From an uncultured Clostridia bacterium (GTDB lineage Bacteria; Bacillota; Clostridia; Christensenellales; CAMQZB01), in contig CAYOSU010000004.1 of NCBI GenBank assembly GCA_964406735.1, positions 1,782-65,781 of the forward strand: a DNA stretch of 64,000 nt, written 5' to 3'. The notes below the pieces were generated by a model. That model searched no databases. It was not told where the DNA came from and saw only the letters and a program-made list of their open reading frames with translations. This document shows positions 2,556-63,381 of the stretch, piece after piece. The first letter of the stretch is position 1. Each line of letters begins with the position of its first letter. Made by a program: the position numbers and the translations under genes.

Positions 2556-2736
2556 AAAAGAATTCAGCGAATGAAAGATTTTCACAAGTATATAGCATCC
2601 TTTGTCCTTAAATTAAGTCAATATATATGATAAATTTTATCAATAAATGTTGCCTTTTTGTTTTGTATAATATCAATAAAGAAGTAATGTGCGGATTTTT
2701 TTACAACAAACCGTTACTATAAAGGAGCGACTCACT

Positions 2737-33293: not shown

Positions 33294-34280
33294 ATGAAAA
33301 AGCTTGGAAAGATCACGAAATTAGCAGCTATATGCTTATCACTCGTACTTTTAGTCTCGATGACCGCTTGCGGCAACGAAACGAAAAACAAAGACCACTT
33401 CGTCGTAGGCATCTGTCAGTTGGTAACGCACGATGCACTCGATGCGGCAACGCAGGGCTTCAAGGATGCTTTGACCGAGGAGCTTGCAAAAGAGGGCAAG
33501 ACGGTAGAGTTCAAAGAGGGCAACGCCGCAGGCGACTCCAACACTTGCGTAACTATAGCCAACGGCTTCGTATCGGCAAAAGTCGACCTTATCATGGCAA
33601 ACGCAACTCCGGCATTTCAGGCGGCAGCGAACGCTACGCTCGACATCCCTGTATTGGGAACTTCGATAACGGCGTACGGCGTTGCGCTTGAAATGGACGA
33701 TTTCGATGGCACGATAGGTGGCAACCTTTCGGGAACGAGCGACCTTGCTCCTATTGACGAACAGGTAAATATGATGCTTTCCTTAGTCCCCGACGCTCAG
33801 ACGGTAGGAATCTTGTACTGCTCTGCCGAGCCTAACTCCAAATACCAGTCGGACGTTGCCGAGGAGCTTTTGAAAAAAGCAGGCAAGACCGTAGTAGTCA
33901 AGACGTTCAGCGACTCGAACGACATCTCGGCGGCATTGAACGCAATTTGCGACAGCGTAGACCTCATCTTCGTTCCGACGGACAACACCGTAGCGTCTAA
34001 CACCGGTATCATCGACCAGATCTGCAGTCTCAAAGGCGTTCCCGTATTTGCAGGCGAAGAGGGCATCTGCAAGGGTTGCGGCTTCGCAACGCTTTCGATA
34101 AGCTACTACAACATCGGCGTCAAGACGGGCAAGATGGCGGCTGAGATACTTCTCGGCAAGGCAGATATTTCCAAAATGGCTGTTCAGTACGACGAAACCC
34201 CCGTCAAGAAGTTTGTCAAGGATCGTTGCGAGGCGTTGGGAATAACGGTACCGTCTGATTACGAAGAGATAGAAAGATAA
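33294..34280 (+). CDS. ABC transporter substrate-binding lipoprotein (COG2984 / TrpX-like family)
   Basis: Lipobox LLVSMTAC, then VGICQLVTHDALD, ANATPA, GTSDL and VPTDNTV blocks typical of ABC_sub_bind. Confidence 0.85.
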   Translation: MKKLGKITKLAAICLSLVLLVSMTACGNETKNKDHFVVGICQLVTHDALDAATQGFKDALTEELAKEGKTVEFKEGNAAGDSNTCVTIANGFVSAKVDLIMANATPAFQAAANATLDIPVLGTSITAYGVALEMDDFDGTIGGNLSGTSDLAPIDEQVNMMLSLVPDAQTVGILYCSAEPNSKYQSDVAEELLKKAGKTVVVKTFSDSNDISAALNAICDSVDLIFVPTDNTVASNTGIIDQICSLKGVPVFAGEEGICKGCGFATLSISYYNIGVKTGKMAAEILLGKADISKMAVQYDETPVKKFVKDRCEALGITVPSDYEEIER

Positions 34281-34290
34281 GGAGAAAAAC

Positions 34291-35181
34291 ATGGGTATAC
34301 TAAACGCAATACCGGGCGCAGTAGCGCAAGGACTAATATGGGGAATAGCGGCGATAGGGCTGTATATCAGCTACCGGGTGCTCGACTTTTCCGATCTTAC
34401 GGTTGACGGCTCGATATGCACAGGCGCATGCGTTGCGGCGATGCTGTTACTTGGCGGCGTAAACGTCTGGATAGCTATGCTTGCGGCGTTTGTTGCAGGA
34501 ATGCTGTGCGGACTTATCACGGGACTTTTCCACACCAAGATGGGCATACCCCCGATATTGGCAGGAATTCTAACTCAGCTCATTCTGTGGTCGGTAAACC
34601 TCAAAATATTGGGACAGGCTAACAGGGCGTTGAACCCGAGACAGTTAGACCTCATAATAACCCAGCTCAAAATAGGTCCGTCGTTGCTCGTTTTGGTAGC
34701 GTTCGTCGCAGTCATCATCGCAATACTATATTGGTTCTTCGGAACGGAGCTCGGCTCTGCGATAAGAGCAACGGGCTCTAACGAGAAAATGGCTCGTGCT
34801 CAGGGCATAAATACGAGCTTTTGCAAGGTATTTGCGCTTATGATATCCAACGGCTTAGTATCCCTTTCGGGTGCGCTTCTGGCGCAATATCAGGGCTTTG
34901 CCGACATAAATATGGGACGAGGTGCAATAGTCATCGCGCTTGCGGCGATAATAATCGGCACGACCCTCGTCAAGATGATAAGCCACAATTTCGCAGTCAA
35001 ACTGTTCGGTGCGGCGCTCGGCGGAGTAATTTATTACATCGTATATCAGGTAATAATCGCGCTTGGCTTCGATACCGACCTTCTCAAGATGCTGTCTGCG
35101 ATAGTCGTTGCGATATTCTTGGCAATACCGTACTGGAAGAAAAAAATGAGCGAGAGACCGAAAGGAGAGAAAAATGCTTGA
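34291..35181 (+). CDS. ABC transporter permease (COG4120)
   Basis: Multi-TM; AQGLIWGIAAIGLYISYRVL.F.DLTVDGS. Confidence 0.85.
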   Translation: MGILNAIPGAVAQGLIWGIAAIGLYISYRVLDFSDLTVDGSICTGACVAAMLLLGGVNVWIAMLAAFVAGMLCGLITGLFHTKMGIPPILAGILTQLILWSVNLKILGQANRALNPRQLDLIITQLKIGPSLLVLVAFVAVIIAILYWFFGTELGSAIRATGSNEKMARAQGINTSFCKVFALMISNGLVSLSGALLAQYQGFADINMGRGAIVIALAAIIIGTTLVKMISHNFAVKLFGAALGGVIYYIVYQVIIALGFDTDLLKMLSAIVVAIFLAIPYWKKKMSERPKGEKNA

Positions 35182-35968
35182 ACTTAAAGGAATAAAAAAG
35201 ACCTTCCACAAAGGCACGTTGAACGAAAAGGTAGCTCTCGACTTAGAGGATTTCAAGATAAACGACGGCGATTTCGTCAGCGTCATCGGTGGTAACGGCG
35301 CAGGCAAGTCGACGCTTATGAACATAATAAGCGGCACCCTTCTCCCCGACGAGGGAAAGATAACTCTCGACGGCGTAGACGTCACCATGCTTTCCGAGCA
35401 CAAGAGAGCAAAGTTCTTGGGAAGAGTTTTCCAGGACCCCATCATGGGCACTGCCGCTAACATGCAGATAGAGGAAAACCTTGCGCTCGCAAAAAGACGA
35501 GGCGAGAAAAGAGGCTTCGGCTGGGGCATAACCAAAGCCGAAAGAGAGGAATACAAGAAGCTTTTGAAGGACTTTGACTTAGGACTCGAGGACAGACTGA
35601 CGTCGAAAGTAGGGCTGTTATCGGGCGGACAGAGACAGGCGTTGACTCTTATCATGGCAACGCTCAAAAAGCCCAAGGTATTGCTCCTTGACGAGCACAC
35701 GGCGGCACTCGATCCCAAGACGTCTGCAAAGGTCATGGGTCTTACCGAAAAGCTTGTCAAAGAGAACGAGCTGACGACGCTCATGATAACGCACAACATG
35801 GCAAACGCCATCGAGTACGGCAACAGGCTGATCTTAATGCAGAGCGGCAAGATAATATACGACGTTTCGGGCGAGGAAAAGGCAAAGCTCACCGTCAAGG
35901 ACCTGCTCGACAAGTTCAGCGACACGGCAAAGGAGCTCGTCAATTCCGACAAAGTAATGCTTGGCTAA
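35174..35968 (+). CDS. ABC transporter ATP-binding protein (COG1101)
   Basis: Walker A GGNGAGKST, signature LSGGQRQ, Walker B LLLDEHTAALD. Confidence 0.9.
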   Translation: MLELKGIKKTFHKGTLNEKVALDLEDFKINDGDFVSVIGGNGAGKSTLMNIISGTLLPDEGKITLDGVDVTMLSEHKRAKFLGRVFQDPIMGTAANMQIEENLALAKRRGEKRGFGWGITKAEREEYKKLLKDFDLGLEDRLTSKVGLLSGGQRQALTLIMATLKKPKVLLLDEHTAALDPKTSAKVMGLTEKLVKENELTTLMITHNMANAIEYGNRLILMQSGKIIYDVSGEEKAKLTVKDLLDKFSDTAKELVNSDKVMLG

Positions 35969-36106: not shown

Positions 36107-36921
36107 ATGGAGAAAAAAGACAGAGTAGATCCGTGGCTGCTTATTCTCGGCGGCACGCTGACGGGGCTTGCGAACGGGCTTTTTGGCGGTGGCGGCGGTA
36201 TGATAGTCGTGCCCTTTTTGATATATTTTGCGGGTCTCGAACCCAAAAAAGCGCACGCAACGGCGATAGCGGTTATCCTCCCCGTAACGATCGTCTCGGG
36301 GCTAATATACCTCAATAGCTTCGATATATCCTTAAAAAAGCTGTTGCCGTCAACGATAGGAGTAATAGTCGGCGGAGTGTTAGGCGCATACGTTTTGCCG
36401 AAGCTTCAGAATAGCTTCGTCATGCTTCTTTTTGCCGCAATAATGATATTGGCAGGAGTGAGACTTATCATGGGGTAGATTTCATTGCGTTTATGGTGGC
36501 AGGCTTTTTCGGAGGAGTGTTAGGCGGTATGGGCATGGGCGGCGGTACTCTCCTGATACCCATTCTGACAGTTATCTTAACGGTATTTCAGCACGAGGCG
36601 CAGGGCATAAATCTGCTGTCCTTTATCCCGATGGCGATAATAACCGTCGTCATGCACGCCAAAAATAAAATGATAACGTGGCGTTACGCACTGTTAGTAA
36701 TGCTCCCTGCGATAGCCTCGTCCGTGATTTCCTCTCTTTTCTCGGCAAAGCTTTCGCAAAGCGTGCTTTCGACCTCGTTTGGCATATTTTTAATAGCGCT
36801 GGGAGTGTTTCAGATGATAAGCGAGCTAATAAAGCTTTTCAAAAACGGAAGCGGAACGGAAAAAGAAGAGGAAAAGGGAACGTCCGAAGCCCCTTGCGAA
36901 AAAGCCACGGATAACGAGTAG
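36107..36921 (+). pseudogene. TauE/SafE (TSUP, DUF81) anion-exporter gene split by a frameshift at a G-run (or two half-size genes)
   Basis: ORF 36107-36478 (4 TM, GGGGGMIVVP) and ORF 36493-36921 (4 TM, GMGGGTLLIP) are the two internal repeats of one TSUP protein. The second frame is open back to about 36430. The frames meet at GGGG 36472-36475, and there is no RBS before 36493. Confidence 0.55.
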
Positions 36922-38704: not shown

Positions 38705-39682
38705 TTAGTTGCTCGACGAATTGCGAAGCACGAGTGTGGTCATGACCTCCGTCTTCGTAGAGAATTTTTCTCCGCTTGCCAGGCAAAACAGCTTTTCGAC
38801 GGCAGTCTCTCCCATAAATCGCTTCGGCACGTCCACGGTAGAAAGGGTAGGTGATAGGTACTCGCAGATAGGCATATTGTCAAATCCGACGATAGCGACG
38901 TCATTCGGGACGTTATAGCAAAACTCCGCAAAAGCCCTCATTGCGCCCTGTGCGATAAGGTCGTTGTCGGCAAAGTAACAGCGAGAGAGCTTCTCACCGC
39001 TTGCAAGAAGTGCTTTCATGTCGGCGTATGCCCCGTCTGCAGAGGGGGTAAGCTCGTGTACGGTACAGCTCGACGAGGAAAGCCCGTTTTTACGCACCGC
39101 CTTATAAAACCCGTCCGCCCTCGACTCAAAGTTAGGGATGCTGAACGAGGAGTGCAGGTATCCTGGTGTCGTTCTGAATTTTTTGATGAGATGATCGGTT
39201 GCGGCGAACGCTCCCTGCACGTTGTTGATAACGACCGAGCTTACGGGCAAGCACTCGAAATAGCCGTCGAGAAATACGATGGGGAGATCCGTTTTAGAAA
39301 CGCTTTTCGCAGTCTGCTCGTCCATTTCGGTCGCAAGTAGGATGATGCCTTTTGAGTTAAAGGAGTGCGACAGACTTTCTCCCTCATAAAGATACGAGAT
39401 GTTGAGTTTAAATCCACGCTTTCTGCACCCTGCCGCAACGCCTTGCGATAGCTCGGAGAAGAATGGCGTGTCAGAAACGACCGCACCGCTTTTGACGTAT
39501 AAAATAAAGTCAATAACGCCCGATGACAGGTCTTTTTTAAGCTCCAACCCCTGCTTTTCCGCTTCTTCGAGCACTGCCGCACGTGTCTTGTCGGACACTC
39601 CGTACTTGTTGTTGAGTGCCATTGATACCGCAGCTTCCGATAAGCCTAAGCTCTTTGCTATAGATTTTGCCGTCGGCTTCAT
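38705..39682 (-). CDS. LacI-family transcriptional repressor
   Basis: N-terminal HTH KSIAKSLGLSEAAVSMALNN plus a periplasmic-binding-protein-like sugar domain. Confidence 0.9.
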   Translation of the reverse strand: MKPTAKSIAKSLGLSEAAVSMALNNKYGVSDKTRAAVLEEAEKQGLELKKDLSSGVIDFILYVKSGAVVSDTPFFSELSQGVAAGCRKRGFKLNISYLYEGESLSHSFNSKGIILLATEMDEQTAKSVSKTDLPIVFLDGYFECLPVSSVVINNVQGAFAATDHLIKKFRTTPGYLHSSFSIPNFESRADGFYKAVRKNGLSSSSCTVHELTPSADGAYADMKALLASGEKLSRCYFADNDLIAQGAMRAFAEFCYNVPNDVAIVGFDNMPICEYLSPTLSTVDVPKRFMGETAVEKLFCLASGEKFSTKTEVMTTLVLRNSSSN

Positions 39683-39781
39683 AACGTTCTCCTTTCATGT
39701 TTTTTTTCTTTAAGTATATTGGAATTAAGTAATTTAGTCAATGATTTACTTAAGATTTTGCAAATATTAAGTATTTTGGTC

Positions 39782-39810
39782 TTGAAATAGGGAAAAAGCC
39801 GATATATAAT
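39782..39810 (+). promoter_or_regulatory. Sigma-A type promoter of the glycosidase/transketolase operon
   Basis: TTGAAA (39782-39787), 17 nt, TATAAT (39805-39810). Confidence 0.5.
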
Positions 39811-39825
39811 TTAAGTATAAGATAG

Positions 39826-39843
39826 TGAAAGCGTATGCTTTCA
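39826..39843. promoter_or_regulatory. Perfect palindrome TGAAAGC-gtat-GCTTTCA, candidate LacI-family operator
   Basis: 7+7 bp inverted repeat, 16 nt downstream of the -10 and adjacent to a divergent LacI gene. The half-site resembles LacI/CcpA-type TGAAAGC. Confidence 0.55.
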
Positions 39844-39866
39844 AAAATGGCTATCAGGAGAACGGT

Positions 39867-41618
39867 ATGGAAGTCAAGAGATTTGAACGCTTTGAAACAA
39901 GTTTGACGGCAAAGGTATCGGGGAATCCCTTTGATACGGACTTTTACGCAATGGTAACGATGCCCGACGGGGCAAAACAGAAAATAAACGGCTTTTACGA
40001 CGGAGACGATGCGTTCAAGCTCCGTGTAATGCCCGAAAAGATAGGCAGATACACCTACGAAACGGTATCGAGCGTTTCGGAGCTGAACGGCAAGACGGGC
40101 GAATTTACCTGCGTAGAGGCAAGGGATGGCGTTCACGGCAAGGTCAAGGTAAAGGACAAGTATTGGTTTGAATACGAGGACGGCACGCCCTACTTAGAGG
40201 TAGGAACGACGTGCTACGCTTGGATATACCAGTCGGACGAGCTTATACAAAAGACTCTTGACACGCTGTCAAAGGGCTACTTCAACAAGATAAGGATGTG
40301 CGTCTTCCCGAAGTGGTACGAGCATAACAGGCATGAGCCGTCTATGTACCCGTTCGAGGGAACGCTCAAAAATTTTGATTACACCCGCCCCAACGTAAAG
40401 CTTTTCAGACACTTAGAGGGCTTAGTAGACAAATTGGCGGATATGGGTATAGAGGCAGATATAATAATCTTCCACCCTTACGATAAGGCTGAATGGGGCT
40501 TTTCGGAGATGACTAAGGCGCAGGACAGAGCGTATATGAAGTACCTGACCGCAAGACTTTCATCTTTCCGCAACGTCTGGTGGAGCTTAGCCAACGAGTA
40601 CGACCTCATGCGCAAGGGCTACAAGAAAAAATACAACGAGTGGAAGGGTATAGCAAAGTGTATACACGACAACGACCCATACGGGCATTTGATAGGCATT
40701 CACCAGTGCTTCAATATGTTCGACCACAGGTATAAATACATAACCCACTGCTCGGTACAGAAAGAGGACTTATATAAGACTGTCGAATACACCGACGAAT
40801 ACAGAGAGAAATACGGCAAGCCCGTCGTATGGGACGAGTGCTCGTACGAGGGCAATATAAACCTCACTTGGGGCAACGTAACGGCGCAGGAGTTCGTCCG
40901 CAGATTTTGGGAAGCTACCGCTCGTGGCGGCTATATGGGGCACGGAGAGACCTACGTCGACAACGAGAACGACATACTTTGGTGGTCTCACGGCGGAGAA
41001 TTACACGGCGAGAGTCAGGAGAGGATAAAGTTCTATAAAGACGTAATGAGCGAATGCAAGAACTTAGAGCTTACTTACGGCTCGAGTGGCAGCGATATAG
41101 CAGAGGGCTACGCAGGTCTTGACACCTTCTTGACGTATACGGGGCTTTATCAGCCGACGACCGTTTCGATGGCGCTCCCCAAAATTACGACCTACAAGGT
41201 ATATGCGATAGACACTTGGAACATGGAAAAGACCCTTGTTTCGGACAGCGCAAGCGGCACGATAACGGTAGAGCTTCCCGGGAGACCCTATATGGCAGTT
41301 CTTGCGATAGCGAATGCCGACGGCGTAATAGACCCGACAAAGACGCAATTCGACGCCGACACGGCGTTCAGGAGTGCAATATACTACAAGGGCGGCAAGA
41401 AGTTCTTGAAAGCGCTCAAATTACTTATGACGGTAGCAGGCTTGAAAAAGATGTACCCTATGGCGATAAGAATGAGCATCAATCAAGGCGCTGTGCTTGG
41501 CGGAATGTCTCCCGATAAGACTAAGGCAATGGAGAAGGGTGCGTCGATAATAATCAACGACGGCAAGCTTTTCAAGGGTATCAAGTATATCATCAAAGGC
41601 ATGAAAGGTGCGTACTGA
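39867..41618 (+). CDS. Putative glycoside hydrolase with DUF5060 / DUF4038 (GH140-like) / DUF5605 architecture and an extra basic C-terminal tail
   Basis: ATG 39867 after AGGAG. GNPFDTDFYAMVT.PDG....INGFYDGDDAFKLRVMPEKIGRYTYET (DUF5060-like), then FEYEDGTPYLEVGTTCYAW and WWSLANEYD (TIM-barrel GH-like), then IDTWNMEKT (DUF5605-like). Recognised from memory only. Confidence 0.6.
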   Translation: MEVKRFERFETSLTAKVSGNPFDTDFYAMVTMPDGAKQKINGFYDGDDAFKLRVMPEKIGRYTYETVSSVSELNGKTGEFTCVEARDGVHGKVKVKDKYWFEYEDGTPYLEVGTTCYAWIYQSDELIQKTLDTLSKGYFNKIRMCVFPKWYEHNRHEPSMYPFEGTLKNFDYTRPNVKLFRHLEGLVDKLADMGIEADIIIFHPYDKAEWGFSEMTKAQDRAYMKYLTARLSSFRNVWWSLANEYDLMRKGYKKKYNEWKGIAKCIHDNDPYGHLIGIHQCFNMFDHRYKYITHCSVQKEDLYKTVEYTDEYREKYGKPVVWDECSYEGNINLTWGNVTAQEFVRRFWEATARGGYMGHGETYVDNENDILWWSHGGELHGESQERIKFYKDVMSECKNLELTYGSSGSDIAEGYAGLDTFLTYTGLYQPTTVSMALPKITTYKVYAIDTWNMEKTLVSDSASGTITVELPGRPYMAVLAIANADGVIDPTKTQFDADTAFRSAIYYKGGKKFLKALKLLMTVAGLKKMYPMAIRMSINQGAVLGGMSPDKTKAMEKGASIIINDGKLFKGIKYIIKGMKGAY

Positions 41619-41619
41619 T

Positions 41620-42456
41620 ATGGACGGTAAATATAAAAGCCTCGAGCGGCTTGCGATGGAAAACCGCATCGACACTGTGGAGCTTATATATCACGCAAAG
41701 ACGGGGCATATTGGCGGAAGCATGTCGGCGATGGACATCTTGACCACGCTGTACTTCGAGGTTCTTGACGTAGAAAAAATAAAGCGAGGCGCTCCCGACA
41801 GGGATCGCTTCGTTCTTTCAAAGGGTCATAACGCAGAGGGCTTATACGTAGTCCTCGCAAAGTGCGGCTTTTTTTCGAAAAGCGAGCTGAAAAAATACGC
41901 CGCTTTGGGCACTGCGTACGCCGCACATCCGACAAAGCACGTTGAGGGCGTAGAGTTTGCAACGGGATCGCTTGGACACGGCTTGTCGGTAGGTGCAGGC
42001 ATGGCGTTAGGCTTAAAAAGCTCGGGCTGCGACTCGCACGTTTACGTATTAATGGGGGACGGCGAGCAAGCGGAAGGCTCTCTTTGGGAAGCTGCAATGG
42101 CGTGCGCCAAATATAAGCTTGATAACCTGACCGCAATAGTAGACAGAAACAGGCTTCAGATCTCGGGAAATACCGAATACGTCATGCCTCTTGACGACTT
42201 AAAGAAAAAATACGAGGCTTTCGGCTTCAATGCGATCGAGGTGGACGGACATAACGCCGAGGAGCTTGCAAAGGCTTTGAGAACGAGGGAAAAAGATAAG
42301 CCCACCGTAGTCATCGCAAACACTGTTAAGGGCTACGGAAGCGTTATAACGGAGAATAAAGCCGTATGGCACCACAAAGTGCCGACGGGCGATGAGTATT
42401 ACGAGATAGTGAGAGAGCTGAAAGAGCGCATAGCGAAGACGGAGGAAAGAGTATGA
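41620..42456 (+). CDS. Transketolase, N-terminal (TPP-binding) subunit
   Basis: TGHIGGSMSAMDIL, SKGH, GSLGHGLSVGAGMA, LMGDGEQAEGSLWEAA, DRN.LQISG. Confidence 0.9.
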   Translation: MDGKYKSLERLAMENRIDTVELIYHAKTGHIGGSMSAMDILTTLYFEVLDVEKIKRGAPDRDRFVLSKGHNAEGLYVVLAKCGFFSKSELKKYAALGTAYAAHPTKHVEGVEFATGSLGHGLSVGAGMALGLKSSGCDSHVYVLMGDGEQAEGSLWEAAMACAKYKLDNLTAIVDRNRLQISGNTEYVMPLDDLKKKYEAFGFNAIEVDGHNAEELAKALRTREKDKPTVVIANTVKGYGSVITENKAVWHHKVPTGDEYYEIVRELKERIAKTEERV

Positions 42457-43388
42457 AGGTCTCGGCAAGAAGAGCGATAACGGACGCAATAGCCGACGTT
42501 GCGGCGACGGATAAAGACGTTTTCCTCGTATGCACCGATTCGAGGGGCAGCGTAACTGCGGAACGCTTTTTCGACAGCTTCCCCGAAAGAGGTATAGAGT
42601 GCGGCATAGCAGAGCAAAACGCAATATCGCTCGGAGCAGGGCTTGCGACGACGGGCAAGACCGTTTTCGTTGCAGGACCGGCGTGCTTCATGTCAACTCG
42701 TGCGTATGAGCAGATAAAGGTAGACGTTGCGTATAATTTCACTGACGTCAAGGTGCTCGGAGTGTCGGGCGGAGTAAGCTACGGACCGTTGGGCGCTACC
42801 CACCTTGCGATCAACGATATAGCGGCGATGCGCTCGCTGTTTAATATGGAGATATTTTTGCCTGCCGACGATATAGAGGCAAGGTTTGTAGCAAATTACG
42901 CCGCAAGCTCAAAAAAGCCGACCTATATAAGGGTTGGCAGAGGAGACGTCGAACGGGTATATGGCGAGAACGAGACGTTCGAGATAGGCAAGGCAAAGGT
43001 AGTGAGAGATGGCTCTGACATAACGCTCGTTGCGGCAGGAGAAACGGTCGCAATAGCCAAAAAGGCGGCGGAAGAGCTGGAAAAGAGCGGCGTTTCTGCG
43101 GCAGTGCTCGATTATTTCACAATAAAGCCGTTTGACGAAATAACGCTCCAAAAATACGCTCATAATTGCGGTTGCGTGCTGAGCGTAGAGGAGCATAGCA
43201 TCATCGGCGGCTTGGGTGAAGCGTGTGCGCATGCGTTGGCAGAGAGTGGCGTTCCCTTAAAGATATTAGGCTTCCCTGACGAGGAACTCATTGTCGGAAA
43301 GCCCGACGAGCTGTTTGAACATTACGGCTTAACGACAAGCGGAGTCGCAAAGGCGGCAACAGAGCTTATCGGGAGGGTAAAAAAATGA
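42453..43388 (+). CDS. Transketolase, C-terminal (pyrimidine-binding) subunit
   Basis: ERGIECGIAEQNAISLGAGLA, GPLGATHLAINDIAAMR, VEEHSIIGGLG. Overlaps the N-subunit gene. Confidence 0.9.
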   Translation: MKVSARRAITDAIADVAATDKDVFLVCTDSRGSVTAERFFDSFPERGIECGIAEQNAISLGAGLATTGKTVFVAGPACFMSTRAYEQIKVDVAYNFTDVKVLGVSGGVSYGPLGATHLAINDIAAMRSLFNMEIFLPADDIEARFVANYAASSKKPTYIRVGRGDVERVYGENETFEIGKAKVVRDGSDITLVAAGETVAIAKKAAEELEKSGVSAAVLDYFTIKPFDEITLQKYAHNCGCVLSVEEHSIIGGLGEACAHALAESGVPLKILGFPDEELIVGKPDELFEHYGLTTSGVAKAATELIGRVKK

Positions 43389-44845
43389 ACGCAGACGGCG
43401 AGAAAAAATATATCCTTGCGATAGACCAAAGCACGTCCAACACAAAGGCAGTGCTGTTTTCGCAAAGCGGCAAGCTCGTCGATAGAGTGGACGTTCCGCA
43501 TAGACAGATAGTCGTCGGGAGCTTAGTCGAGCACGACGCCGAGGAGATATATCAAAACACCCTTTTGGCTGTAAAGAGGCTTATCGACAAGGATGGAGAG
43601 AGAAGAACGCAGATAAAAGCGTGCGGCATCACTAACCAGCGTGAGACTGCGATCTGCTTTGATATAAAAAGCGGCAAGCCCGTATATAACGCAATAGTAT
43701 GGCAAGACGGCAGGGCAACGGAGCAGACCGATAGAGTGGAAACGGAGCGTTCTTACGTCAAAAAAGTGACAGGGCTCAACCTCTCGCCCTACTTTTCCGC
43801 CCCGAAATACGCTTGGATAATAGAGAATATCAAGGAAGCGCAAGAGTGCGCAAAAAAGGGCGATATAAGGTGCTGTAACGTCGATGCCTGGCTTGTTTTT
43901 AAGCTGACGGGGAATTTTAAGACCGATGTTACCAATGCGTCGAGAACGCTTATTCTTGACCTTGAAACGCTGTCCTACGATGAAAAAATGCTGTCGCTTT
44001 TCGGCTTAAAGCGAGAGTTTTTGCCAAAAATAGCCTGCTCCGACGAGCTTTTCGGCTACACAGACTTCGAGGGCTTACTCCCCGAAAAAGTGCCGATAAA
44101 GGGCGTTATGGGGGATTCCCACGCCGCACTTTTCGCAAATACCGAGAAAGTCGGCGGCATAAAGGCAACGTTCGGCACTGGCACGTCCTTGATGCTCAAC
44201 GTAGGCGATAAGCGAATATCGAACTGCCCGACATCAGTCGTCGAGAGCGTAGCCTACTCAAAGAACGGTAAGGCGTATTATGCGATAGAGGGCAATATCA
44301 ACTACTCGGGAGCGGTCATGAACAAGGTGATAGACTTAGGTCTTGCGCAGAGCGTCAGGGAGATAGCGACTGCGGCAACGAGCGTAGAAGATAGCGGCGG
44401 CGTATACTTAGTCCCTGCCTTTTCGGGTCTTTCGGCGCCGTACTGGGACGAAAACGCCCGAGCCGTCATCTGCGGAATGTCTGCGTCCACAAAAAAAGAG
44501 CATATATTGCGTGCGGCTGAAGAAGCTGTCGCATATCAGATAAAGGACGTTTTCGAGGAGATAAAGCGTTGCGATATAGCGATAAACGGCATATACGCCG
44601 ACGGCGGCGCAACGAGGGACGACTTTTTGATGGGCTTTGTATCGGATATTTTAGACGTTACGGTGTCCGTATCGAGCGTAGAAGAGCTGTCTGCGTTCGG
44701 CGTTGCGGCGATAGCTGCGGCAAGCGAGGAGTTTTACGGTAGCAAGACGTATAAAACGGTACAGCCGAAAATGAGCGAAGAAAAAAGGCAAACGCTTTAC
44801 GGCGGCTGGAAAGATGCGGTCGCAAAGGCGATAACCAACAAATAA
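43385..44845 (+). CDS. FGGY-family carbohydrate kinase (glycerol-kinase-like branch)
   Basis: LAIDQSTSNTKAVLF, ITNQRETA, WQD.R, GDSHAALF, DGGATRDDFLMGF. Confidence 0.85.
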   Translation: MNADGEKKYILAIDQSTSNTKAVLFSQSGKLVDRVDVPHRQIVVGSLVEHDAEEIYQNTLLAVKRLIDKDGERRTQIKACGITNQRETAICFDIKSGKPVYNAIVWQDGRATEQTDRVETERSYVKKVTGLNLSPYFSAPKYAWIIENIKEAQECAKKGDIRCCNVDAWLVFKLTGNFKTDVTNASRTLILDLETLSYDEKMLSLFGLKREFLPKIACSDELFGYTDFEGLLPEKVPIKGVMGDSHAALFANTEKVGGIKATFGTGTSLMLNVGDKRISNCPTSVVESVAYSKNGKAYYAIEGNINYSGAVMNKVIDLGLAQSVREIATAATSVEDSGGVYLVPAFSGLSAPYWDENARAVICGMSASTKKEHILRAAEEAVAYQIKDVFEEIKRCDIAINGIYADGGATRDDFLMGFVSDILDVTVSVSSVEELSAFGVAAIAAASEEFYGSKTYKTVQPKMSEEKRQTLYGGWKDAVAKAITNK

Positions 44846-44856
44846 AGGAGAGAACC

Positions 44857-46269
44857 ATGAAGGACAATAAACAGACTTTCGGACTTATAATATCGACGAG
44901 GAGCTTTTTCCCCTCGCATTTAGTAAAGACCGCAAGGGAACAGATAACGCAAAAATTAGACGAGCTTGGCTACGGTTATATCACCGTCGACGAGAATATG
45001 ACGAAATACGGCGCAGTAATGACCTTTGACGAGGCGCTTACTTGCGCAAAGCTCTTCGAGGAGAACCGCAAGGAGATATCCGGTATCATCGTCGTACTTC
45101 CAAACTTCGGCGAGGAGCTTGGCATCGCAGAGGCGATAGATAGAGCAGACCTCAACGTACCCGTATTGGTGTCTGCGATAGACGACGACTTTGACAAGCT
45201 CGATATGGCAAACAGAAGAGACGCCTTTTGCGGTAAAATATCCCTCTGCAACAACCTCTATTACAGGGATATAAAATACACTCTCACCACCCTTCACACC
45301 TGCAAGATAGAAAGCCCTGATTTTACCAAGGACTTAAAGGACTTTGCGGCGGTATGCAACGTCGTAAACGGCACTCGCGGGAGCCGCATAGCGATGCTCG
45401 GCGCAAGACCAGTTGCGTTCAACACCGTACGCTTTTCGGAGAAAATTTTGCAAGCTCACGGCATTTCCGTTCAGACCGTCGATATGTCGGAGATAATTTT
45501 CGAGGCGGAAAAGCTTGACGATAAGGCAAGAATAAGCGAAAAGGTAGAGGAGATCCGTAATTACGGTAAAATCCCCTCCTTTATCGGCGAAGAGCTTCTC
45601 GAAAAACAGGCTCGCCTTTGCCTTACGATAGAGGACTTTGTCAAAAGATATAAAGCAAACGCCTCGACTGTGCAGTGCTGGGACAGCGTAGAGAACAACT
45701 ACGGCTGTGCTACCTGCCTTGCGATGAGTATGCTCGGCGAAAAGGGCTTGCCCTCTGCGTGCGAGAGCGACGTAACGGGCGCAGTCTCGATGCTGATGGC
45801 GCACTTGGCAAGCGGTAAGGCGGCGGCTTTAATGGACTGGAACAACAATATAAGGGATGACAGAGACAACTGCATATGCATCCATTGCAGTAACTTCCCC
45901 AAGAGCTTTTTCGATACCGATGTTGAGATAGAGTGCCTTGACGTGCTCGGTTCGACGCTTGGCAAAGAAAACTGCTTCGGAGCGGTCAAGGGACAGGTGA
46001 AAGAGGGCGGTATGACCTTCTTCAGGGTAACGACTGACGACCGCAAGGGCGTTATGAAAGCGTATGTCGGCGAGGGTACGTTTGAGAGCGAGGAGATACC
46101 CACAAAGGGCGGTATCGCAAATTGCCGTGTAAACGATTTGCAAGGGCTGATGAAATACGTTTGCGAGAACGGCTTCGAGCACCACGTATGCTTCGTAAGA
46201 GGAAGATACGCAGGCGTTTTAGAGGAAGCGTGCAAATATCTCGGGATAGAGGTCTATAGGCATAATTAA
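44857..46269 (+). CDS. L-fucose-isomerase-family sugar isomerase (COG2407-like)
   Basis: 470 aa. N-terminal FGLIISTRSFFPSHL, central ACESDV.GA and C-terminal EHH motifs resemble the FucI/AraA-like superfamily. Confidence 0.65.
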   Translation: MKDNKQTFGLIISTRSFFPSHLVKTAREQITQKLDELGYGYITVDENMTKYGAVMTFDEALTCAKLFEENRKEISGIIVVLPNFGEELGIAEAIDRADLNVPVLVSAIDDDFDKLDMANRRDAFCGKISLCNNLYYRDIKYTLTTLHTCKIESPDFTKDLKDFAAVCNVVNGTRGSRIAMLGARPVAFNTVRFSEKILQAHGISVQTVDMSEIIFEAEKLDDKARISEKVEEIRNYGKIPSFIGEELLEKQARLCLTIEDFVKRYKANASTVQCWDSVENNYGCATCLAMSMLGEKGLPSACESDVTGAVSMLMAHLASGKAAALMDWNNNIRDDRDNCICIHCSNFPKSFFDTDVEIECLDVLGSTLGKENCFGAVKGQVKEGGMTFFRVTTDDRKGVMKAYVGEGTFESEEIPTKGGIANCRVNDLQGLMKYVCENGFEHHVCFVRGRYAGVLEEACKYLGIEVYRHN

Positions 46270-46302: not shown

Positions 46303-46345
46303 GGCGTTGTTTACCAAAATTAAAGGTAAACGACGCCGTTTTTTT
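46303..46345. terminator. Bidirectional terminator
   Basis: GGCGTTGTTTACC / GGTAAACGACGCC followed by GTTTTTTT. Confidence 0.75.
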
Positions 46346-60810: not shown

Positions 60811-63381
60811 ATGAGAGCACTAAGGCTTAGGACGGAATATTTGAAAGACCCTATCGGTATTGGTGAGAGGTCTCCGAGATTATTGTGGAATGACGAGGGA
60901 GCAAAAGAACAGACGAGCTTTGAGCTTAAATACTCCGTCAACGGCAACGAAAAGATTGTAACGAGAAAGACAGCGGAGATGTTCTGCGACCTTCCCGAAA
61001 AGCTCAATAGCCGTGACGAGGTCGAATGGCAGTTGAGAATAACGGACGAAAATGGCGAGACCTCCGTTTGGAGCGAAAAAGCACGCTTTGAGATAGGACT
61101 TCTCGACAAAACTGACTTTGAAGGCAAGTGGATAAGCGGCGACTACAAGCCCCAAAAGAACGTAAGATACCCCGTAGATCACTTCAAAAAGGGATTTAAG
61201 CTAAGCGGCAAAGTCAAAAAAGCAAGGCTATATATGTCCGCTCAGGGAATATACGAAGCTTTTCTCAACGGCAAAAAGATAGGCGAGGACGTTTTAGCAC
61301 CAGGCTCTACCGATTACAGAAAGAGGGTACAGTATCAGACCTACGATATAACCTCGCTTCTTGGCGATAGCAACGAGTTCACCGTAGAGCTTGCCGACGG
61401 CTGGTATAGAGGAAGTGTCGGCGCATACGGAAAGACTGCGGTATACGGCAGAGTAACTGCGTTCATCTCGCAGATAGAGATATATTACGAGGACGGCAGG
61501 TGCGAAAAGGTACTCAGCGATAAAAGCTTTAGCTGGTCAAACGACGGAGCTATACGCTTTGCGGACCTCAAAGACGGCGAAGTCGTGGACGCAAACGCCG
61601 CTCCAAGCTATGCAGGAAAGGCAAAAGAGGTCAAAAAGAGCATCAATCTGTGCGCTTCCGACAACGTTTCTGTCAAGAAAAAAGAAAGCTTCACGCCAAC
61701 ACTCATAGTAACCCCGTCAGGCAAAAAGGTGCTCGATTTTTCGCAGAATATCGCAGGCTTCATAGGATTCAAGCTCAACGCCAAAAAGGGACAGAGGATA
61801 ACTCTTCTTGCGGGCGAGATAATGAAAGACGGCGAATTTACCCAAAGTAATTTCCAGATAGACAAGCTCGATTACGAGTGGAGCATGCTTGAAGAGTTCA
61901 CCAAAGTCGTCATGAGCAAGTACAGCGAAAAGGACAAAGCCCACGTCGTCAAAACGCCCCTTCAAAAGGTTGAGTATACCTGCAAGGACGGCGAGAATGC
62001 TTATGAGACGAGATTTGCGATCTTCGGTTTCAGATACGTATTGGTCGATGCCGACGTTGATTTCAAGCCCGAGGACTTTTACTCCGTAGCGGTATATTCC
62101 GACGTTGAGGAGACCTTGAGATTCGCAACCTCGAACGACAACGTAAATAAAATAGTAGAGAACACTCGCTGGAGCGTCAAGGGCAACTTTGCCGACGTTC
62201 CGACCGACTGCCCCACTCGTGAGAGAATGGGCTGGACGGGCGATGCGCAGATATTCTACAACGCAGCAAATTATTTCATCGACGGTGCGGCGTTCTACAA
62301 AAAGTTCATCCGTGATATGGTGGACGGCAGAACAAAGAACGGCATGGTCTCTGCGGTAGTTCCGATGAACGGCGTCGAGATGATGTACGTATCGACAGGC
62401 ACGTCCGCAGGCTGGCAGGACGCTCTCGTATTAGTCCCTTACCGTCAATACCTTCTCTATCGCGATGAAAGGGTGTTGAGAGACAACTACGAAGCGTTAA
62501 AGAAATTCGGCTTGTGGATGATAAAATGCGCAGGCGACAAGGATAAAGACAACCCGTACGCAGAATTCGTATACTCTCACGGCGTACAGCTCGGCGAGTG
62601 GTTAGAGCCCAAAGAGTACGAGGACTTCAACAGGAACGGTCCCGAGAAACGCAAAGAAGAGCCTACTGCGTACTTTGCGTATACCCTTGCTGCGCTTTCC
62701 GACATAGCGAAGATACTCGGAAAGGACGAGGACAGCAAGCTCTTCAAAAAGTATAGCGACGGCGCAAAGAACGCATACCGCCATATGTACCTCAAAGAAG
62801 TGCCCGACACGGACAGACAGGCAAAGCTCGTACGTCCGCTTGCGTTGGAACTTTACGGCGACGAGGTTACGAAAGCGGGCTTGGCGGCAAGACTTGCTAA
62901 GTCTGCAAAGAACAGAGATTACCACGTCGCAACGGGCTTCCTCTCGACGGTATTCCTGCTCGGATGCCTTTCAAAGAACGGCTATGTTGACGAGGCGTAT
63001 AAGATACTTCTCAACGAAGACTACCCCGGCTGGATAAACGAGATCAAAAACGGCGCAACGACTATATGGGAAGACTGGGAGGGCGGATCGTCCAACAATC
63101 ACTACTCCCCGGGCGCGGTCTGCGAGTGGATATTTACGGAGGTCGGCGGCATCAAGGTAGTCGGCGAAAGAGCGTTTGAAATATCTCCTAAGGTAGGCGG
63201 AGGCTTAACGTATTCCGATATGAGCTACGACAGCCCCTACGGAACGGTCGAGTGCCGTTGGAACGTAGTCGGCGATAAGACGGCTTACAAGATAAAAGTC
63301 CCCGGCAACTGCAAAGCGGAGTTTATCGTCGGAAGCGAGAGTAAAACGCTTTCCACGGGCGAATACGAAATAACGCTATAA
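60811..63381 (+). CDS. Alpha-L-rhamnosidase, GH78 (second, divergent copy)
   Basis: RLLWN, ARLYMSAQGIYEAFLNGKKIG, VPTDCPTRERMGWTGDAQIF, GATTIWEDWEG. Confidence 0.9.
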   Translation: MRALRLRTEYLKDPIGIGERSPRLLWNDEGAKEQTSFELKYSVNGNEKIVTRKTAEMFCDLPEKLNSRDEVEWQLRITDENGETSVWSEKARFEIGLLDKTDFEGKWISGDYKPQKNVRYPVDHFKKGFKLSGKVKKARLYMSAQGIYEAFLNGKKIGEDVLAPGSTDYRKRVQYQTYDITSLLGDSNEFTVELADGWYRGSVGAYGKTAVYGRVTAFISQIEIYYEDGRCEKVLSDKSFSWSNDGAIRFADLKDGEVVDANAAPSYAGKAKEVKKSINLCASDNVSVKKKESFTPTLIVTPSGKKVLDFSQNIAGFIGFKLNAKKGQRITLLAGEIMKDGEFTQSNFQIDKLDYEWSMLEEFTKVVMSKYSEKDKAHVVKTPLQKVEYTCKDGENAYETRFAIFGFRYVLVDADVDFKPEDFYSVAVYSDVEETLRFATSNDNVNKIVENTRWSVKGNFADVPTDCPTRERMGWTGDAQIFYNAANYFIDGAAFYKKFIRDMVDGRTKNGMVSAVVPMNGVEMMYVSTGTSAGWQDALVLVPYRQYLLYRDERVLRDNYEALKKFGLWMIKCAGDKDKDNPYAEFVYSHGVQLGEWLEPKEYEDFNRNGPEKRKEEPTAYFAYTLAALSDIAKILGKDEDSKLFKKYSDGAKNAYRHMYLKEVPDTDRQAKLVRPLALELYGDEVTKAGLAARLAKSAKNRDYHVATGFLSTVFLLGCLSKNGYVDEAYKILLNEDYPGWINEIKNGATTIWEDWEGGSSNNHYSPGAVCEWIFTEVGGIKVVGERAFEISPKVGGGLTYSDMSYDSPYGTVECRWNVVGDKTAYKIKVPGNCKAEFIVGSESKTLSTGEYEITL

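Follow-up and report, generated by a model that had tools for sequence, protein, structure and literature searches.

The operon and its transcription unit

The window analysed here, the whole 64,000-nt stretch of contig CAYOSU010000004.1 from an uncultured Clostridia bacterium, contains five co-directional genes that lie divergent from a gene for a LacI-family regulator (Table 1). They encode a glycosidase of the family of PDB entry 4n0r (hereafter the 4N0R family), the N- and C-subunits of a split transketolase (TK-N and TK-C), a glycerol-kinase-like FGGY kinase and an isomerase with a Fucose_iso_C domain. We propose that this operon probably serves the catabolism of D-apiose, with an isomerase of a new type.

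The gene layout is taken from the list of open reading frames (ORFs) and from independent gene calls on identical metagenomic contigs; the two agree, and they bear out the original prediction of a five-gene operon with overlapping or short junctions, divergent from the LacI gene. Because a promoter and a terminator bracket the five genes, and because the junctions between them overlap or are tight, we treat them as a single transcription unit. The terminator has a predicted folding energy of -28.7 kcal/mol (z -4.7), and none of 200 shuffled sequences folds equally well; lying between convergent genes, it could act bidirectionally. As had also been noted, no transporter gene is found among the five genes of the operon.

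Table 1. Coordinates of the operon, its control elements and other features of the 64,000-nt window
Feature	Position	Strand	Basis or remark
LacI-family regulator, 325 aa	38705-39682	-	divergent from the operon; Pfam
Glycosidase, 4N0R family, 583 aa	39867-41618	+	ORF list, gene calls, Pfam, PDB search
Split transketolase N-subunit (TK-N), thiamine diphosphate-binding, non-canonical type	41620-42456	+	start is the ATG chosen by the gene callers, 1 nt past the glycosidase stop
Split transketolase C-subunit (TK-C), pyrimidine-binding, non-canonical type	42453-43388	+	4-nt overlap with TK-N
FGGY kinase, glycerol-kinase-like	43385-44845	+	4-nt overlap with TK-C
Fucose_iso_C-domain isomerase, AraA/FucI superfamily (by predicted fold)	44857-46269	+	11-nt gap after the kinase gene
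Operon promoter TTGAAA-17-TATAAT	39782-39810	+	11/12 consensus positions, best in the region; position kept in L007
Promoter-like site of the LacI gene, TTGACT-17-TATACT	39713-39741	-	consensus match only, 10/12 positions
Intrinsic terminator	46303-46343	+	13-bp G+C-rich stem, then U7
TTAAGTA heptamer array, five copies	39710+, 39725+, 39747-, 39767+, 39811+ (span 39710-39817)		repeat search
Perfect 7-4-7 palindrome TGAAAGC-GTAT-GCTTTCA	39826-39843	+	sequence search; in the 5' leader
GH78 gene	2689-5277		Pfam
GH78 gene	60811-63381		Pfam
GH3 gene	7079-9487		Pfam

The split transketolase and the kinase

The non-oxidative route of D-apiose degradation (MetaCyc PWY-8089) relies on ApsI, AplK and AptA/AptB (Carter et al., 2018, as summarised in PMC13001218). 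According to PMC13001218, the cluster ECSF_RS02670-02715 of E. coli ST131/SE15 is an example of this transketolase route, in which the isomerase step is replaced by two short-chain dehydrogenase/reductase (SDR) oxidoreductases.

In Pfam, TK-N of the window matches Transketolase_N (158 bits), and TK-C matches Transket_pyr and Transketolase_C. TK-N is 40% identical to AptA of E. coli and TK-C is 39% identical to AptB; the motifs in common are WHH(K/R)VP (WHHKVP in TK-N, WHHRVP in AptA) and SYGPL..TH (SYGPLGATH in TK-C, SYGPLASTH in AptB). The corresponding motifs are WHG and TVGEDGASH in the split transketolase of C. hydrogenoformans (PDB entries 6yaj/6yak), which is biochemically canonical, and WHG and SIGEDGPSQ in human transketolase. 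In E. coli TktA numbering, TK-C has Leu in place of Asp469 and Ser in place of His461, and both residues are lost in AptB too. In E. coli transketolase, the alpha-hydroxyl of the aldose partner is read by Asp469, and His461 contributes to phosphate binding; the loss of the two residues fits a substrate with a ketone leaving fragment, dihydroxyacetone phosphate (DHAP), as in apulose-4-phosphate. By its motifs, the protein is therefore a two-subunit transketolase with an AptAB-type active site.

The kinase retains the R-E-Y-D glycerol-binding core of GlpK as well as the NQRET and PYFS motifs, and is 35% identical to AplK of the E. coli SE15 apiose cluster. It fails both GlpK cut-offs, with 465.9 bits against 590.35 for TIGR01311 and 442.9 against 498 for NF000756. 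Two of its pocket motifs, GDSHAAL and GTGTS, correspond to GDSHAAL and GTGSS in AplK and to GDQQAAL and GTGCF in GlpK (QQ to SH and CF to TS), and the AplK-type forms (GDSH and GTG(S/T)S) are kept across the module kinases described below. Scoring under both equivalog cut-offs and with changed pocket residues, it cannot be taken for GlpK proper; we predict from its sequence a glycerol-kinase-like enzyme, distinct from GlpK, that phosphorylates a ketose (apulose). NCBIfam holds no specific models for AplK, AptAB, ApsI or GH140.

The isomerase

The sole Pfam domain of the isomerase is Fucose_iso_C (PF02952, 102.5 bits), and its sole NCBIfam match is the sulfoquinovose isomerase SftI (NF048012), at 87.2 bits against a cut-off of 700; neither FucI nor AraA is matched in NCBIfam. 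Searches against PDB sequences gave no match, even by profile. In an AlphaFold2 model (pLDDT 80, pTM 0.86) the protein has a three-domain fold with TM-scores of 0.75-0.79 to AraA and about 0.7 to FucI at 12-16% sequence identity, the best Foldseek match being the L-arabinose isomerase 4r1q (TM 0.79), with the FucI structure 1fui at TM 0.74. Judged by this model, it belongs to the AraA/FucI fold superfamily. An assignment as L-fucose or L-arabinose isomerase proper was rejected, as there is no equivalog match and the gene is accompanied by those of a transketolase and a GlpK-like kinase, whereas AraA and FucI are usually found with AraB/AraD or FucK/FucA. Moreover, a standard araA lies 5 kb from the isomerase gene, within a genuine araBDA set downstream in the same window.

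The isomerase family is very large, with at least about 8000 homologues that are typically about 70% identical across Clostridia and are publicly named 'fucose isomerase'. The closest GTDB genome is an uncultured Clostridia metagenome-assembled genome, whose isomerase is 89% identical. From its genomic partners, we predict that the window protein is a D-apiose isomerase. ApsI is a TIM-barrel enzyme. The known pathway isomerises apiose either with ApsI or, in E. coli, with the two SDR oxidoreductases; the operon has neither of these, and an AraA/FucI-fold protein instead.

The glycosidase

The glycosidase has the domain order DUF5060, clan GH-A barrel, DUF5605. Of the domains expected from the original prediction, Pfam confirms DUF5060 (58 bits) and DUF5605 (57 bits), whereas the middle, catalytic domain gives no match to DUF4038 (PF13204.13), even at E<=10, although a precomputed annotation made with PF13204.14 does list PF13204 for this protein. 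The sequence aligns over residues 3-426 with PDB entry 4n0r (E 3.3e-96); its match to the apiosidase 8t9w covers 146 residues and reaches only E 1.3e-4, and BT1012 of B. thetaiotaomicron is not found. A profile built from nine family members retrieves 4n0r at E 8e-155; at E<=1 it retrieves none of the GH140 structures. These results speak against GH140 membership, and the description of the protein as GH140-like through DUF4038 has to be corrected accordingly: on the sequence comparisons, it is a member of an orphan clan GH-A family, the 4N0R family, that is related to GH140.

The relationship is remote but detectable. A comparison of the family with GH140-type proteins by hhalign gives a probability of 99.3% (E 1e-20) and covers the Ig-like domain and the barrel. 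The family motifs ANE(Y/W)D and DE..YEG are conserved, and the catalytic NE and E motifs align with those of GH140-type proteins: the family has invariant N243-E244 and D323-E324/Y327-E328 (alignment numbering), which correspond to the invariant E335/Y338-E339 of GH140-type proteins. The clan GH-A catalytic residues are present in the window protein, and a 2026 preprint reports that the 4N0R family keeps the same catalytic residue conservation.

The window enzyme thus has, like the GH140 beta-D-apiosidases, a clan GH-A barrel with conserved catalytic Glu motifs, but its C-terminal domain is DUF5605 where that of GH140 is Collagen_bind_2. BT1012 is periplasmic (bioRxiv 10.64898/2026.03.13.711244), whereas the window enzyme is predicted to be cytoplasmic: no signal peptide is visible in its N-terminus, MEVKRFERFE, and it should therefore act inside the cell. 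PDB entry 4N0R itself, a 'putative glycoside hydrolase' from structural genomics with no publication and no assigned function, has the same DUF5060-barrel-DUF5605 architecture and lacks the C-terminal extension of about 95 residues of the window protein (residues ~490-583; 41340-41618), which is lysine-rich and has no Pfam match. Homologues that match over the full length, with 565-600 aa, suggest a subgroup with the same extension. On the basis of gene neighbourhoods, we predict that the enzyme releases apiose or trims an apiose-containing oligosaccharide.

Conservation of the module across genomes

We fetched 80 genome loci around isomerase homologues (numbered with the prefix L) and counted the partner genes according to isomerase identity. 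A split transketolase is present in 29 of the 36 loci with an isomerase identity of at least 60% (Clostridia) and in 17 of the 20 at 48-60%, which are Bacteroidales polysaccharide utilization loci (PULs) with SusC/D and DeoR genes; an AraD-like gene occurs in none of either group. Below 48% identity, only two of 24 loci carry the split transketolase and 12 carry an AraD-like gene. The transketolase and the kinase are linked to the isomerase in 46 of the 56 loci of Clostridia and Bacteroidales with at least 48% isomerase identity. The GlpK-like kinase accompanies the transketolase in both of these groups, and most exceptions are short contigs.

Two of the initial ideas can be judged at this stage. 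The reading of a kinase plus a split transketolase as the logic of apiose catabolism gains from the wide conservation of the four-gene module (TK-N, TK-C, kinase and isomerase), from its proximity to GH140-type homologues and from the AptAB/AplK active-site substitutions. The assignment of the aldose-ketose step to a FucI-family protein holds as regards the AraA/FucI fold and the linkage to the module.

The more distant isomerase homologues, below 48% identity, form a context class of their own, in which the neighbours are a class II aldolase/epimerase resembling AraD and an FGGY kinase that is not of the GlpK type (L045, L062, L066, L068, L071, L072, L077, L078, L080, L081, L083 and L086). 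This class is found in Planctomycetes, Acidobacteria, Thermotogae and Spirochaetes, and looks like an alternative pentose isomerase, for example a replacement of AraA.

A gene of the 4N0R type and/or a true PF13204 'Apiosidase' gene is present in 12 of the 48 transketolase-linked loci. Five independent loci have a true GH140-type gene within or next to the module. In L031, the genes for TK-C, the kinase, the isomerase and a 4N0R-type glycosidase follow one another, and directly downstream comes that of a protein with PF13204 and Collagen_bind_2; this GH140-type protein scores 331 bits against PF13204, and matches the apiosidase 8t9w at E 4e-84 and 3kzs/5msy at E 4.5e-45. Entry 8t9w is deposited as 'Apiosidase', while 3kzs and 5msy, which we take to be BT1012 of B. 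thetaiotaomicron, are named only as DUF4038 protein or glycoside hydrolase. L018, L035 and L082 carry GH140-type genes as well. The coupling is unusually tight in L023 (5385-11401), where a 4N0R-type gene is inserted between those of TK-N and TK-C and is followed by the kinase and isomerase genes.

Starting from the glycosidase, three of seven sampled contexts of 4N0R homologues contain the transketolase-kinase module. Clusters are found in cultured bacteria. That of Clostridium saccharoperbutylacetonicum comprises a 4N0R-type glycosidase, GH67, TK-N, TK-C, an FGGY kinase, an isomerase-like protein and a PF13204 (GH140-type) protein. In Thermoanaerobacterium thermosaccharolyticum, the 4N0R-type gene is linked to the transketolase-kinase module, the upstream gene being cut by the end of the locus. 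In a Paenibacillus strain, a LacI gene is divergent from genes for a 4N0R-type glycosidase, an isomerase-like protein, TK-N, TK-C, an FGGY kinase and an AP_endonuc_2 (TIM-barrel) protein. The isomerase-like protein of C. saccharoperbutylacetonicum and Paenibacillus represents a second subfamily, 25% identical to the window isomerase. The motifs SYGALGM, WHHxVP, GDS(H/Q) and GTG(S/T)S are kept in the transketolase and kinase of all three cultured-species loci. The sequence records of these loci are CP016087 for C. saccharoperbutylacetonicum, at about 5.01-5.03 Mb, CP016893 for T. thermosaccharolyticum and CP150290 for Paenibacillus.

The transporters of the module vary from locus to locus (ribose-type ATP-binding cassette (ABC) systems with RbsD/FucU, CUT1 ABC systems, major facilitator superfamily and ureide-permease-like proteins), which is in keeping with different substrates entering one conserved catabolic core. 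In L012, L016, L022, L025 and L075 (Clostridia, Erysipelotrichaceae), a ribose-type ABC transporter lies within the module and is followed by genes for an RbsD/FucU mutarotase and a metallo-beta-lactamase-fold protein; this in-module transporter suggests the uptake of a free monosaccharide.

Nucleoside-hydrolase-like genes of two kinds are found among the module loci. Those of the Bacteroidales PULs (L042, L044, L047, L048, L050, L054, L057 and L076) encode lipoprotein-type Sde182_NH-like proteins with Sde0182_C, and those of the Clostridia (L009, L011, L033 and L039) are IU_nuc_hydro-like and often in tandem. Such proteins might be a further type of glycosidase for the same furanose sugar.

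A different context is seen in L092 (Clostridium sp. SYSU_GA19001, JAMSKT010000003.1), where a 4N0R-type gene lies between two gene groups and no transketolase is present. On one side is a bacterial microcompartment (BMC) locus, with BMC shell, aldehyde dehydrogenase, PTAC and RnfC-like genes, together with an FGGY kinase gene, and on the other a ribose-type ABC system with DeoR, AP_endonuc_2 and PfkB genes. The same sugar may be broken down further by another route here.

A proposed apiose pathway and its alternatives

We propose that the operon probably encodes a version, found in Firmicutes and Bacteroidales, of the non-oxidative D-apiose pathway that uses a new type of isomerase and is coupled to a cytoplasmic glycosidase, a scheme in which we infer both the identity of the sugar and the catalytic steps. 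An apioside or apiose-bearing oligosaccharide, derived for instance from rhamnogalacturonan-II (RG-II), apiogalacturonan or plant apiosides, would be imported by a transporter encoded elsewhere. The 4N0R-family glycosidase would cleave it in the cytoplasm, freeing or exposing D-apiose, which the AraA/FucI-fold isomerase would convert to apulose. The glycerol-kinase-like FGGY kinase would then phosphorylate a hydroxymethyl arm to give apulose-4-phosphate, and the split transketolase would transfer its C1-C2 unit onto glyceraldehyde-3-phosphate, yielding xylulose-5-phosphate and DHAP. The divergent LacI-family protein would act as a repressor until the sugar or a derivative is present.

This proposal is supported by the fact that the enzyme functions of the module are exactly those that the known route needs, the isomerase step being one that is already replaceable in E. 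coli. It is further supported by the independent genomic link to apiosidase homologues, by the AptAB/AplK-like active sites and by the plant-cell-wall setting. The two systems share their tasks (conversion of aldose to ketose, phosphorylation and transketolase cleavage), a two-subunit transketolase, a GlpK-like FGGY kinase and a dedicated sugar-responsive regulator. They differ in their hosts, Proteobacteria for the apiose pathway and anaerobic Firmicutes and Bacteroidales for the module. Unlike the E. coli apiose cluster, the operon also includes a glycosidase, and the window is without the E. coli-type ABC transporter and DUF2291 gene. A plausible ecological source exists: in bioRxiv 10.64898/2026.03.13.711244, BT1012 of B. 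thetaiotaomicron liberates D-apiose, which is found among the secreted products, and Rha-alpha1,3'-Api is described as an RG-II fragment. These observations also give a reason for the frequent GH78/GH106 neighbours.

The transketolase route for apiose is itself already known. The AraA/FucI-fold isomerase in an apiose route, the distinct Firmicutes/Bacteroidales clades of transketolase and kinase and the coupling to an orphan glycosidase family appear undescribed in the literature searched, where nothing was found that links this module to apiose. According to PMC13001218, the work of Carter et al. showed apiose degradation by Bacteroides and Clostridia, so that part of the finding may have been anticipated there.

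Several observations weigh against the apiose proposal. A placement of the transketolase and the kinase against AptA/AptB and the apulose kinase had been suggested. They are only 35-40% identical to AptAB and AplK, and canonical enzymes are about equally close to them. In a tree of 174 TK-C sequences, E. coli AptB falls in a neighbouring lineage, outside the clade that the module proteins form by themselves; the tree was built quickly by neighbour joining, and its deep nodes lack robustness. Some 40 clusters at 50% identity have scores above the AptB level. On this sequence evidence the window transketolase and kinase are like AptAB and AplK, yet not their orthologues. The YGxLG motif is present in several split-transketolase clades, uncharacterised ones included (150 representatives at 50% identity), and is thus not diagnostic of apulose-4-phosphate. 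The glycosidase is only a remote relative of GH140; about half of the sampled 4N0R-family genes do not adjoin the module, and three expressed homologues had no detectable activity in the screens of the 2026 preprint. Nucleoside-hydrolase-like genes, in 13 of the 48 module loci, are unexplained by the apiose model. Finally, no transporter for the pathway is encoded in the window, and, at an uninformative 24% identity, the in-module binding protein of related loci was not accepted as an orthologue of its counterpart in the E. coli apiose cluster.

Some of these points would be explained if the same chemistry acted on another rare ketose-forming sugar, be it branched-chain, a tetrose or a furanose from ribose-like glycosides, with the apiosidase link reflecting shared polysaccharide sources. 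The position of the TK-C clade apart from AptB, the many non-canonical split-transketolase clades with related motifs and the nucleoside-hydrolase-like genes, as well as the RbsD/FucU and ribose-type ABC genes of some module loci, all fit such a sugar, as do the best PDB relatives of the in-module solute-binding protein (5ulb, an unassigned sugar binder, and 4ry8) and the 4N0R family being without known activity. Yet we could name no other natural sugar from which this enzyme trio would give two central metabolites: tetruloses would leave glycolaldehyde phosphate, and D-ribulose is wrongly configured at C3 to serve as a transketolase donor (textbook stereochemistry). In addition, apiose is furanose-only with a cis-diol, so that ribose-type binders and mutarotases are compatible with it, and the GH140-type genes in or beside the module recur independently. 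We consider another sugar unlikely, though it is the likeliest of the alternatives. It is rather improbable, in our view, that the module serves apiose while the 4N0R enzyme is no apiosidase and cuts a neighbouring bond (to a sugar on apiose, or to the aglycone), the apiose being freed by another enzyme or imported free. A true GH140-type gene, where there is one, is usually accompanied by a 4N0R-type gene (L018, L031 and C. saccharoperbutylacetonicum), which suggests non-redundant specificities; 4N0R homologues are also seen in module-free clusters beside GH78, GH43, GH3, GH2 and GH1, and some module loci encode monosaccharide-type ABC systems only. The finding of no activity for the three homologues in the preprint screen would fit too. 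Against this, the operons of the window, L007 and Paenibacillus encode no other glycosidase than the 4N0R enzyme, whose gene shares its promoter with the catabolic genes, and no GH140-type gene is found anywhere in the 64-kb window.

That the ordinary annotation is correct, with a housekeeping split transketolase, a glycerol kinase and an L-fucose/L-arabinose isomerase for general pentose and glycerol metabolism, seems to us very improbable. Homologues are indeed publicly named glycerol kinase, transketolase, fucose isomerase and, for the glycosidase, DUF5605 protein, and the summed scores of the two transketolase subunits would exceed the cut-off of the NCBIfam model NF004559. But the kinase falls under both GlpK cut-offs and has an altered pocket, the transketolase is without the Asp and His conserved in canonical bacterial, split and human enzymes, the isomerase has no sequence match to solved FucI or AraA while a standard araA is close by, and the four genes travel together across phyla with dedicated sugar regulators. 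We give hardly any credence to a pathway of the sulfo-transketolase type for sulfoquinovose or a related 6-deoxy sugar. The sulfo-transketolase/sulfo-transaldolase pathways (SftI, SqwGH) likewise pair a FucI-family isomerase with a dedicated split transketolase in anaerobic Firmicutes, and SftI is the sole NCBIfam match of the isomerase; this match is, however, far under its cut-off. The sulfo-transketolase route needs no kinase, which the module has, and requires a sulfoacetaldehyde reductase and a sulfonate exporter, for which the annotated neighbours, both in the window and in the related loci, include no gene. No sulfoquinovosidase was seen there either, and the associated glycosidases are related to GH140.

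The regulator and the intergenic spacer

The LacI-family protein matches Peripla_BP_3 (91.9 bits) and also Peripla_BP_1 in Pfam; its LacI helix-turn-helix match, at 23.2 bits, is under the 27-bit cut-off. Its best NCBIfam matches, RbsR, GalS and PurR, are all far under their own cut-offs. A homologue (31-83% identity) adjoins the module in 23 related loci.

The original prediction placed the operator at the TGAAAGC palindrome. The palindrome does exist as described (Table 1), but its role as an established operator is not upheld. Perfect 7+7 palindromes with spacers of 0-8 nt number 89 in the window against 34 in shuffled sequence, so that about 0.1-0.3 would be expected by chance in the 184-bp spacer between the LacI gene and the operon, and the counterpart is degraded in L007, the closest orthologous locus, whose regulator is 83% identical. 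A chance-level frequency and this lack of conservation make the palindrome poor evidence for an operator. In a search of the window that allowed up to three mismatches, the one site with a single mismatch (58837) falls within a coding region, and no exact copies were found in related loci beyond the same species. As an RNA hairpin the palindrome is of modest stability (-11.4 kcal/mol, z -2.2), and it may have arisen by chance or form a hairpin in the leader. In Rfam searches for a riboswitch or leader RNA, the operon region gave only two sub-threshold chance matches.

We regard the TTAAGTA array as the better operator candidate, as judged from its distribution and conservation. Five of the eight TTAAGTA sites in the 64 kb are inside the spacer, and the arrangement is kept in L007; it is this enrichment and this conservation that make us prefer it. 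Part of the array is a 27-bp palindrome, TACTTAAGATTT-gca-AAATATTAAGTA, at 39747-39773. ATTAAGT motifs are also found upstream of the module in L018, L020 and L033.

Elsewhere in the window, a single AATTAAGTCA motif at 2611-2620, about 70 bp upstream of the first GH78 gene, resembles the TTAAGTA repeats, and is either a chance match or a hint of a shared regulon. The extension of the regulon through TTAAGTA sites upstream of GH78 (2611) and of an ABC system (33012) was not retained, these being single weak sites.

The genomic neighbourhood

The window was described as rich in genes for pectin side chains, and this is what we find: two GH78 rhamnosidase genes, a GH51 gene and araBDA, to which a GH3 gene can be added. 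Downstream of the operon lie a gene for a PocR/AraC regulator, the GH51 gene and araB-araD-araA; a PfkB kinase gene is located elsewhere in the window. The GH3 protein has a permuted Pfam order, with Glyco_hydro_3_C and Fn3-like domains ahead of the Glyco_hydro_3 N-terminal domain. GH3 genes adjoin the module or 4N0R-type genes in L018, L061, L089, L094 and L095.

An ABC system at 33294-35968, 3 kb upstream of the LacI gene, comprises a PF04392 ABC_sub_bind protein, a BPD_transp_2 permease and an ABC_tran ATPase. It was considered as the missing transporter and rejected, since neither L007 nor the other related loci show it linked to the module. At 36107-36921, two adjacent short TauE/SafE ORFs (123 and 142 aa) resemble one membrane transporter that has been split, naturally or by a frameshift.

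Implications

Apiose anchors the side chains of RG-II, and its use by other anaerobes is essentially undescribed in the literature searched. A broader proposal can be put forward tentatively, as a possibility that we hold with less than even confidence. The 4N0R family would consist of new cytoplasmic apiose-releasing glycosidases, and the 'fucose isomerase' family would be the D-apiose isomerase of anaerobes. Firmicutes and Bacteroidales of the gut and rumen would use the RG-II apiose freed by primary degraders chiefly through these two families, joined by the mis-annotated 'transketolase' and 'glycerol kinase'. Within this broader proposal, the nucleoside-hydrolase-like proteins of the Bacteroidales could be yet another apioside-cleaving type.

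The presence of the same cluster in the cultured C. saccharoperbutylacetonicum, T. thermosaccharolyticum and the Paenibacillus strain makes the prediction testable. The prediction also assigns a definite candidate substrate to the orphan 4N0R family of glycosidases, of which the expressed members gave no activity in recent screens. If the apiose proposal is true, several thousand genes in gut, rumen and digester genomes that are now named fucose isomerase, glycerol kinase or transketolase would be reassigned (at least about 8000 for the isomerase homologues), and pectin degradation would gain an extra cross-feeding link, from primary degraders to apiose consumers.

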